From the NCBI GenBank assembly GCA_038046645.1, contig JBBSVU010000006.1, positions 169,196-193,977 on the forward strand: DNA of 24,782 nucleotides. Direction: 5' to 3'. The stretch comes from an archaeon (GTDB lineage Archaea; Iainarchaeota; Iainarchaeia; Iainarchaeales; 0-14-0-20-34-12). Shown here one piece after another: positions 15,001 to 18,000 of this stretch. The stretch's first letter is position 1; each line of letters starts with the position of its first letter. Position numbers: made by a program.

Positions 15001-18000
15001 GCTTCAACAAATATTTTGTAAAATATTGGGACCATGCCAATTGCGATAAATGCTATTGCCAAAATGCTTGTGTGCGAAGGGAAAGTGAAATATGCAGTCC
15101 ATAAGGCAACCGAGCTTATTATAAATGAGAATATTGTCATTAGGATTGCGTGCCTCCTTAATGACCTTGTTGACAATAAGTTTTCGACTACCATAGATAT
15201 TAGCTAGGGCAAACCCTATATATTTATTACTTTCTATGGAAATATTTTGTTATATTGGAGCATAACTGAGGAAAATTGGTATTTTTTGGCCTATAGTAAA
15301 GGACATAACTATTTGGCTATAATATAATCCTTTACTATCTAGCAAAAGACAATAAAAGTCTCAAAATTAAAGTCTTTTGCTATAATTTATAGTATTTTTT
15401 ATATCAAAAGGTGAATTAATGGATAAAGACATTGTAATCCCAGGGGAATTCATTGCATATGAGGAGGAATTCCTAGAAGGGAAGAATACAGTAAATGCAG
15501 ACGGCAGGATATATTCCACAACATTGGGAACTTTAGATGTTGATGAGAAAAACCGCTTGGTAAATGTTAAAAAAGCTAGGGATATAGAAAAGTTGAAGGT
15601 TGGCGCAGTCATAACTGGGACAGTTGCCTTTGTAAGGGACAATGTTGTTTCAATAAGGATGGCAGAAGCCCATGATGGAAAAACAAAATTAGTATTGTCA
15701 TCAGGAAGCGCATTCCTTAAGGTTTCAAATGTAAGCACTTCTTACATTGAATCATTAAAGCAGCATTTTAAAATAGGCGATATTGTGCAAGCAGTTGTCA
15801 CCGAAATTAAGCCGTTTGGCATACAACTAAGGACAAACGACCCTAATTTAGGGGTAGTAAAAGCATTTTGTTCAAAATGCAGGTCAGCAATGCACTTAAG
15901 CCACGAAAAATTACAATGCTTAAATTGCGGGAGTGTTGAGCTAAGAAAGTTAAGCAGCGAATATGCAGTAAAGTAATTATTCTTATGCTTTGATTAATAA
16001 AAAAGAGAGGTGTTATTTTGAAAATACAGGTTTTGAATCACGATAAAAATGTGCTCGAATTCAGGATGCTTGGGGAAAGGCACACATTGCCTCAATTGCT
16101 CAAGACAGAACTGCTTTCGAATTCAGATGTGGAATTTGTATCCTATAGGTTGGAACATCCAACAGATGACGATTCATTATTTATTTTAAAAACAAAAAAA
16201 GCAGACCCAAAGAAAGTGCTGCTTGAAACATGTAAGGATGTAACAAAGGAGTTAGACAGCTTTGAGGATGCAGTAAAATCCTTGAAGTAATCCCTTTTTA
16301 CTTATTTATTTGATGTTATGCCTAGCAAGATTCGGGCTATTGCAATAGATGATGGCTATTTTGAAAAAGGTAAATCTAAAACTACGAAATTAATAGGCAT
16401 AATCTGCCGTTCTGATTCTCAGGTAGAAGGCATTTTATCAAAAGATATAGAAATAGATGCATTGGATGCAGCTGATTTGATAGCAAATATGGTGAAAAAA
16501 TCAAAATTTTCTGACCAAGTAAGGTACATCTTCCTTTCAGGCCTGAATTTTGCAGGCTTTAATATTGTTGATTTGCAGGAACTTTATTCTAAATTAAAGA
16601 TTCCAATCATAGTTATCCTAAAGAAGAAGCCAGATTTGCATAAAATAAATTTAGCATTAACCAGATTTGCTGATTTTGATAAAAGAATTGATTTAATTAA
16701 AAAAGCAGGAAAATTATATTCATACAAAAAAATATATTACCAAAAGATAGGCCTGGACGATAAGCAAGCGCAACATATAATAGGTGCTTTTACATATACA
16801 TCTAACATCCCTGAGCCAGTAAGGCTAGCACATATTATTGCTTCAGGCCTTACCTTGGGTGAAAGCACAAGGCCTTAAAATGACGAAACACAATAATCCT
16901 AAAATTCAGAGGAAAAGTATTTCTGATAATAAACAAGAACCCAAAATCAAATCATTGAAGCAGAGGCTTGCATTTTTGCGATGGCTTGACCCATTTACCT
17001 ATGTTGATATTTTTATACTCCCAAAAATAAATCCTAGCGAGAATAAAACAATTACAAATATTATCTATGTTATTTCAGCATTCATCTTTGCGTTTGCATT
17101 TTATTCCTTGTTCGGTTTTTTGCTTTCCACAAATTATCCTGCAACAGTTGTTCTTTCAGGGAGCATGGAGCCAGTTTTTTACCGTGGCGATATTTTAATT
17201 GTTCAGGGTATTTCAGCAGAAACACTTATTGCGCCAGAAATCTCTTTAGATATTGAATCACTTGAAAATGTTTCAACATTTTTTTATGCTAATGGTTACT
17301 GCTCTTTAACCGGAAGCACTTCCCCAGTAAAATGTTTGCAATTATTAAATCCTGTGCTTGCGAATAAAATTTCCCTAGGCAATTTTACCACTAATGAAAT
17401 AAGGTTTTCTGATGGCAGGGTTCTGCCAATTGAAACATCTGGTGACATTGTCATTTACTATTCAAAGCTGCAGAACAAGGAGATTGTCCACAGGGCTGTG
17501 GCAAAAATAAAAGCAAAAGACGGCATTTATGTCCTTACAAAAGGTGACTCAAAGCAAAATCCATTTATAGATCAGGAAGGCGGGATTGTGGAATACGCAA
17601 TAAATGTAAATGACCTTTACGGAAAGGTAATTTTCAAGATTCCGCTTTTGGGCTATGTAAAGCTTTTGCTTCTTGATGATCCTATGCAGTTAATAAAAGG
17701 CTGTTATCTGACAAACACTTGCGTTCTTCCATAGGAAGGTTTAAAATAATAAATCAGCAATTGTTTTGTATGATTTTATCTTTGGAAAATGCTATCTCTT
17801 TCAAAAGATGCATTGATGCTATTTCTGTCCTGATTGATGAAGCGGAATTTTCAATAACTGAAAATGGTCTGGAATTAAGGGCGACAGATCCAAGCCAAAT
17901 AAGCATGATTGATTTCAAGATAAACAAAAGCGCATTCAAGCAGTTTGATGTGAAAGAGGACATAAAATTAGGCATTGACATAGGCTATTTGAGCCAAATC

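Follow-up and report, generated by a model that had tools for sequence, protein, structure and literature searches.

Absence of the transcript cleavage factor TFS from Iainarchaeota and related phyla of DPANN Cluster 1

Gene content of the locus and the place of tfs

The window analyzed here is a stretch of 24,782 nucleotides of contig JBBSVU010000006.1 (G000:C6:169196-193977) from an Iainarchaeota genome that is 89.2% complete. Its genes include csl4, rpo11, the DUF99/endonuclease dU gene (Endo-dU), a signal peptidase I gene, two PCNA genes, priL, priS, and gins51 (Table 1). The first of these presumably encodes the exosome cap protein, a name that follows from position and gene order. The block from csl4 to PCNA is partly present in 30 Iainarchaeota loci and is also found in Micrarchaeota genome G570 and in genome G697 of a sister phylum described below.

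Table 1. Features of the window, in window coordinates
Feature	Position	Strand	Evidence or remark
LonB protease, piece	5097..6101	+	intein N-/C-terminal pieces at breaks
Intein/endonuclease-like ORF	6307..7374		between LonB pieces
ORF without family	7535..8353		between LonB pieces
LonB protease, piece	8292..10289	+	intein N-/C-terminal pieces at breaks
LonB protease, piece	10273..11481	+	intein N-/C-terminal pieces at breaks
csl4 (exosome cap); opens the conserved csl4-rpo11-DUF99-signal peptidase-PCNA block	15419..15976	+	PF14382 match
rpo11 (RpoL), RNA polymerase subunit	16018..16290	+	PF13656, 64.8 bits; PRK01146 models below cut-offs
rpo11-DUF99 gap, 27 nt	16291..16317		window sequence and relatives' loci; not the tfs place in the TFS-bearing loci examined
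DUF99/endonuclease dU gene	16318..16878	+	PF01949, 191 bits
Archaeal signal peptidase I	16838..17734	+	TIGR02228, 72.4 bits, above cut-off; alternative start ATG at 16881 possible
35-nt junction, inferred vacated tfs site	17735..17769		window sequence and synteny; gene would not fit, no remnant
PCNA, first of two tandem copies	17770..18519	+	PF00705/PF02747; TIGR00590 above cut-off
PCNA, second copy	18623..19375		diverged from the first copy

The two PCNA genes of the tandem are diverged, and genome G006 carries both types at separate places. Elsewhere in the window, a LonB protease is split over three ORFs, and the whole region (5097-11481, plus strand) has the appearance of two inteins that are split or broken.

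According to reviews, TFS helps nearly every archaeal RNA polymerase to remove errors and to restart. The preliminary description of this locus had placed the usual site of the tfs gene between rpo11 and DUF99. The short spacing that it gave for these two genes agrees with the sequence of the window; the site itself is off by two genes. In seven Aenigm-type loci (L296, L297, L298, L299, L302, L305, and L306), tfs lies directly 3' of the signal peptidase gene, and a Bathyarchaeia locus (L300) shows the order rpo11-DUF99-tfs-PCNA. The gene thus follows DUF99 or the signal peptidase gene and precedes PCNA in TFS-bearing relatives, and the vacated place in the window would therefore be the junction between signal peptidase and PCNA. 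No TFS is encoded in the neighborhood of rpo11 in any of the 30 Iainarchaeota loci, nor between signal peptidase and PCNA in the nine of them that show both flanks, where the gaps measure 1 to 480 nt. The same junction is empty in G570 and G697, at 22 and 25 nt (L350 and L352). Of 80 metagenome loci obtained with the signal peptidase as query, only one contains the gene block, with no PCNA in view.

Distribution of TFS in Iainarchaeota and other archaea

The absence of TFS from the source genome, as stated in the preliminary description, is observed directly: PF01096 gives no match above its cut-off, and two profiles of diverged TFS, run with filters off, give no real match. The claim of a phylum-wide absence is likewise upheld, with 0/201 Iainarchaeota genomes above the cut-off for PF01096 and 0/215 for TIGR01384. 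These 215 genomes are the whole phylum sample, and 58 of them are at least 90% complete (completeness figures cover this phylum only). As a control, Rpo11, which is similar in size to TFS, is found in 205 of the 215. Three single-contig genomes are negative as well: G006 with the diverged-form profile (filters off) and by motif, and G001 and G014 with PF01096, TIGR01384, and the diverged-form profile. The earlier statement that no bacterial Gre protein takes the place of TFS is also supported, in a small sample: PF03449 and PF01272 each have matches above cut-off in 0/5 genomes, six different genomes in all.

The diverged-form profile was built from the diverged Micrarchaeota forms described below and two canonical TFS sequences. 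It gives weak matches in 9/215 Iainarchaeota, of at most 20.5 bits, and on inspection these prove to be other zinc proteins or noncoding frames. On reading, the best 20 and 15 weak TFS-profile loci of the phylum also prove to be other zinc proteins; the weak matches in Iainarchaeota and Altiarchaeota are ribosomal proteins, Rpo12, an RNase P subunit, and similar proteins. The caveat that a very diverged factor could escape the profile is thus justified for one clade of Micrarchaeota but not for Iainarchaeota (no real match, n = 215), for which it appears to be answered as far as homology reaches. Two zinc-ribbon candidates were rejected. The first is a ribbon of 46 amino acids with an Asp-Glu tip (G000:C14:45320-45457), with matches in 24/89 genomes; its clear homologues have no Asp-Glu, and its atlas matches are uninformative. 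The second, represented by L027, L029-L032, and L037, gives the best subthreshold TIGR01384 matches, has no C-ribbon, is absent from the source genome, and reaches atlas scores of <0.9. As an observation in its own right, this is an uncharacterized Iainarchaeota family in which a TFS-like zinc ribbon at the N terminus is followed by a disordered stretch and then by a short, conserved tail at the C terminus. The source genome retains a histone, and ORFs like Spt4, Spt5, and TFE were recognized by eye.

TFS is absent from further phyla. In Altiarchaeota, PF01096 matches 0/61 genomes, and three weak matches of the diverged-form profile among these 61 are not TFS; PCNA, as a control, is found in 5/5. 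The phylum that includes G687 and G697 yields 0/31, its one weak match being an RNase P-type protein. This phylum is probably B1Sed10-29, because the Rpo2 tree places it as sister to Iainarchaeota and because it possesses csl4 along with split primase genes. Altiarchaeota, Iainarchaeota, B1Sed10-29, and Micrarchaeota make up DPANN Cluster 1 (PMC7414124, PMC13473441) and form one clade in PMC13473441. The hint in the preliminary description that Aenigmarchaeota might also be without TFS is overturned by canonical TFS in 7/7 Aenigm-type genomes tested, and 3/3 Euryarchaeota or Bathyarchaeia genomes are positive as well. Several Aenigm-type genomes carry two tfs-like genes.

The Micrarchaeota form the exception. 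A control run on named Micrarchaeota gives 0/22, and PF01096 matches 34/401 genomes at an E value of ≤0.001. The single-contig Micrarchaeota genome G304 was screened over ~70% of its length. Among 30 of these loci that were read, 25 show a TFS-type C-ribbon with Asp-Glu, comprising 17 compact two-ribbon proteins, 3 long-linker forms, and 5 fusions with DUF6879; the other five are false matches, namely four ribbons that open long ORFs and one of another kind. With two added genomes, and with two matches unread, carriers amount to at least 27/401, ~7% of the genomes searched. The loss that had been thought probable for Micrarchaeota therefore holds for most of them (~93%) and not for these carriers. 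Run on 241 genomes, a profile of the Micrarchaeota forms has 17 strong matches and 2 that are due to chance. All nine carriers placed on the Rpo2 tree (FastTree, one gene) fall in one long-branched clade nested inside Micrarchaeota, which we take, as a guess, to be Micrarchaeales.

The compact proteins (17 loci within L254-L282; ~30 database clusters) are 81 to 88 amino acids long. They share with TFS, TFIIS, and the Rpb9-C11-A12 group two zinc ribbons and an Asp-Glu pair at the tip of the C-ribbon in identical 15/7 spacing, reach 38 to 50 bits with PF01096, and are modeled as a double ribbon whose fold matches Rpb9, C11, and A12 (pLDDT of 70.8 and pTM of 0.49). With the canonical two ribbons and Asp-Glu present, the compact protein is a putative TFS-like factor. 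It differs from canonical TFS in a linker of 12 to 13 residues in the 17 loci, compared to ~43, and in a TIGR01384 score of 31.9 bits against a cut-off of 64.75. The Micrarchaeota forms differ further in their position away from the PCNA locus (0/4 carriers adjoin PCNA) and in the five fusions. In the databases, the compact family has its closest relatives among ordinary TFS, and no donor stands out clearly. In the fusions, from L255, L258, L259, L269, and L271, DUF6879 is joined to a TFS-type C-ribbon with the Asp-Glu tip; they are possible candidates for a regulated or repurposed cleavage factor.

The loss of TFS across the clade is thus real, larger than first claimed, and has one exception, in Micrarchaeota. 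The view that transcription in these archaea proceeds with no known cleavage factor is retained for Iainarchaeota and extends to Altiarchaeota, the sister phylum, and most Micrarchaeota; it is the proposed gene site that falls away. In the literature, Methanopyrus kandleri has been named as the sole archaeon without TFS (PMC7289017, PMC5715097), and a weaker wording, "some archaeal genomes," is found in PMC10899632. M. kandleri resembles the present case as an archaeal RNA polymerase working without TFS and differs in being one species, compared to ~300 genomes from three phyla and, in addition, most Micrarchaeota. The pattern is already contained in Supplementary Data 25 of PMC13473441 (2026), where arCOG00579 occurs in 0% of Altiarchaeota, 14.3% of Iainarchaeota, 0% of Micrarchaeota, 67 to 100% of Cluster 2, and 100% of Undinarchaeota; TFS or TFIIS is not mentioned in its main text, and the pattern is left uncommented there. 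The 14.3% conflicts with the 0/215 obtained here; the arCOG00579 cluster includes a few non-TFS members. No statement of TFS loss in DPANN was found in literature searches, which covered papers outside subscription journals. Three supplement files of PMC7414124 contain no match; further data tables of that paper might be relevant here.

Active site of the RNA polymerase

Polymerase motifs were compared with Thermococcales structures. The source genome has GFNMLDA in place of GYNMEDA at the Metal-B motif, GGRQGEVDTGVSTKV in place of GGREGLVDTAVRTAQ in the bridge helix, and LRTKH in place of LNTFH in the trigger loop, and the link domain of its Rpo2 also differs at normally fixed places. Named records of Iainarchaeum and Diapherotrites have polymerase motifs as in the source genome or group with its phylum; together with the preliminary description, they are the basis of the phylum label used here. 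The Glu of the Metal-B motif is presumably the counterpart of yeast Rpb2-E836, an assignment based on PMC8204694 and on residue numbering. According to PMC2919709, E836 is a fifth carboxylate; it occurs in almost all two-barrel polymerases and holds Mg-B via water. The residue is found in 0/24 Iainarchaeota, 1/16 Micrarchaeota, 0/9 carriers of TFS-like genes, 2/5 members of the sister phylum, 5/5 Altiarchaeota, 6/7 Aenigm-type sequences (Asp in the seventh), and 32/32 non-DPANN sequences. About ten different residues replace it, which is the pattern expected of relaxed constraint rather than of one adaptive change.

Other substitutions are particular to Iainarchaeota. The bridge helix has Glu for Leu in 25/25 sequences, the trigger loop has Lys for Phe in 21/25, and the link domain has Lys for Arg in 19/24. 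None of the three occurs in 36 to 39 non-DPANN, 16 to 21 Micrarchaeota, 5 to 6 Altiarchaeota, and 7 Aenigm-type sequences (TFS presence was checked in 3 of the 39 non-DPANN reference loci), and the substitutions in bridge helix and in trigger loop are thus lacking in the TFS-less Altiarchaeota. An unplaced protein, P0045, has the trigger-loop Lys too. Near-invariant columns are changed at 114/651 positions in Iainarchaeota, 105 in Aenigm-type enzymes, 50 in Altiarchaeota, and 46 in Micrarchaeota, so overall divergence was rejected as a mark of TFS loss, the TFS-bearing Aenigm-type enzymes being about equally changed. A His at the "gating tyrosine" position of the link domain was likewise dismissed as a special change, as many TFS-bearing Euryarchaeota have Met there.

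Nanoarchaeum equitans is a close described comparison: the polymerase of this DPANN species is likewise radically altered in bridge helix, trigger loop, and Metal-B motif. It differs in keeping TFS and in having prolines and a Gln at Metal-B instead of the Glu/Lys set of Iainarchaeota (PMC8204694). The Gln of this TFS-bearing species and the Micrarchaeota carriers without the Metal-B Glu mean that residue and factor are not strictly coupled. Because Altiarchaeota have no TFS and a near-canonical center, the polymerase changes are best read as later than the loss of TFS or unrelated to it. To judge from these sequences, the change of the Metal-B Glu would have followed the loss without enabling it, unless the two are unconnected.

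Several further features of these polymerases were seen. A bridge-helix Asp present in 36/36 non-DPANN sequences is replaced by Asn or Gln in 13/19 Micrarchaeota (L171-L208), a position listed in PMC2776397 among sites giving superactive mutants. The Aenigm-type polymerases (L200, L205, L207, L209, L210, L224, and L249) have a strongly changed bridge helix of their own and a Tyr before the trigger-loop His. In G007, G025, and G081 (L143 and L159), which belong to one genus, Rpo1N and Rpo1C share a single open frame of ~1,260 amino acids; in other members they are split.

Interpretation of the loss

With modest confidence, we favor one early loss of TFS in DPANN Cluster 1 with no substitute, followed by relaxed constraint on the Metal-B residue. 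The tfs gene would have been deleted cleanly and only once, early in Cluster 1, from the site between signal peptidase and PCNA. Elongation in the cluster would then depend on RNA polymerase and Spt4/5 alone, and backtracking would be resolved by weak intrinsic cleavage of the polymerase or be tolerated. Once factor-stimulated cleavage had gone, the Metal-B Glu of Rpo2 would be unconstrained and may have drifted to many residues, in Iainarchaeota and Micrarchaeota as well as in part of the sister phylum. The Micrarchaeota clade with the long branch would later have gained TFS-like genes at unrelated sites or may have kept them, much altered. The single loss is favored by the counts of zero in 215, 61, and 31 genomes and ~93% of Micrarchaeota without TFS, set against the positive controls (7/7 and 3/3), and by an empty junction common to three phyla. 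Deletion of tfs in Thermococcus kodakarensis is viable with a minor growth effect (PMC10899632), and the loss is read as tolerated on this ground. The support from ancestral reconstruction is divided. Supplementary Data 25 of PMC13473441 gives a presence probability of 0.15 at the Cluster 1 ancestor, next to the complete occurrence in Undinarchaeota; its value for the DPANN ancestor is just 0.22, and for the root it is 0. Taken alone, the reconstruction therefore does not demonstrate a loss on the Cluster 1 stem. The PCNA neighborhood of Altiarchaeota is rearranged in 5/5, and gene order therefore provides no link between their loss and the others.

The TFS-like genes of the one Micrarchaeota clade allow another history, in which the Cluster 1 ancestor had TFS, this clade kept it in fast-evolving form, and independent losses took place in Altiarchaeota, in Iainarchaeota with the sister phylum, and in the other Micrarchaeota orders. 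The long branch of the carriers in Rpo2 fits fast divergence of a retained gene, as do the ordinary TFS relatives of the compact form with no clear donor. Such a series, compatible with either mechanism, is nevertheless judged unlikely, since the nested position of the carriers in the fast single-gene tree requires many losses, their genes have three architectures at varied sites (none before PCNA in the four carriers), and the junction is empty in three phyla alike. An artifact of incomplete bins or insensitive profiles is largely refuted and scarcely credible: most genomes are MAGs and the published 14.3% for Iainarchaeota (PMC13473441) speaks for it, but Rpo11 is recovered in 205/215, the single-contig genomes are negative, and the profiles detect forms as diverged as those of Micrarchaeota. 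A nonhomologous protein that enters the secondary channel and assumes the role of TFS is very doubtful. Gre and TFS are themselves convergent (PMC7289017), the retained histone is a barrier that TFS helps to cross, and the evidence against a substitute consists of homology searches. On the other side stand the lack of Gre in six genomes, the failure of both zinc-ribbon candidates, the lack of any candidate suggested by eye among those listed of 207 short ORFs shared with single-contig G006, and the statement in PMC10899632 that no other archaeal cleavage factor has been found.

The single loss without a substitute also has to be weighed against compensation by the polymerase itself. By analogy with cyanobacteria, the rebuilt bridge helix, trigger loop, and link domain of Iainarchaeota might let the enzyme cleave its own transcript fast or seldom backtrack, and the new bridge-helix Glu and the trigger-loop Lys beside the catalytic His could act together. 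Cyanobacteria without Gre are likewise a whole lineage with no known cleavage factor and with bridge-helix and trigger-loop changes of their own (PMC7026648). In Escherichia coli, single changes in these elements increase hydrolysis by a factor of 3 to 11 and make up for the deletion of gre (PMC7026648). The Glu/Lys/Lys changes are confined to Iainarchaeota in the sequences compared, and the new motifs are almost invariant across the main order and therefore under selection. However, the residues around the catalytic Mg are retained in cyanobacteria, where intrinsic hydrolysis has been measured and is fast (PMC7026648), whereas the Metal-B Glu, part of that surrounding, is not conserved in Iainarchaeota (0/24) and is lost in most lineages of Cluster 1. 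Loss of an Mg-B ligand should, moreover, weaken cleavage. The near-canonical active site of the TFS-less Altiarchaeota indicates that the changes are unneeded for the loss, the TFS-bearing Aenigm-type enzymes are about as changed (105/651 against 114/651), N. equitans kept TFS with its odd active site (PMC8204694), and the Lys recurs in P0045. Compensation is accordingly rated improbable. The same low expectation attaches to the wider proposal that Cluster 1 is an old clade with histone-bound DNA and no cleavage factor, to which Iainarchaeota might have answered with a different catalytic center and a chemistry undescribed in multisubunit RNA polymerases. Such a center, with no Metal-B Glu, an acidic bridge-helix residue, and a Lys beside the trigger-loop His, is rated improbable as a means of factor-independent proofreading or backtracking resistance.

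The weight of the present case is limited by the frequency of gene loss among DPANN archaea, by the dispensability of tfs in T. kodakarensis, and by the earlier published table. Elongation with no known cleavage factor is nonetheless a stable condition in one main DPANN branch, to which the Altiarchaeota with their larger genomes belong, and the statement that all archaea except M. kandleri have TFS (PMC7289017, PMC5715097) is contradicted by ~300 genomes belonging to three phyla and by most Micrarchaeota. The loss is also a candidate shared character of Cluster 1, the monophyly of which is debated. The connection of the active-site changes to the loss of TFS is putative; the changes themselves are testable, as the Iainarchaeota substitutions can be transferred to existing recombinant archaeal polymerases. 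For the role of cleavage factors, these archaea offer a graded series, from Altiarchaeota with a near-canonical enzyme and no TFS, through Iainarchaeota with a rebuilt center and no TFS, to the Micrarchaeota clade that has no Metal-B Glu and carries a miniature TFS-like protein.
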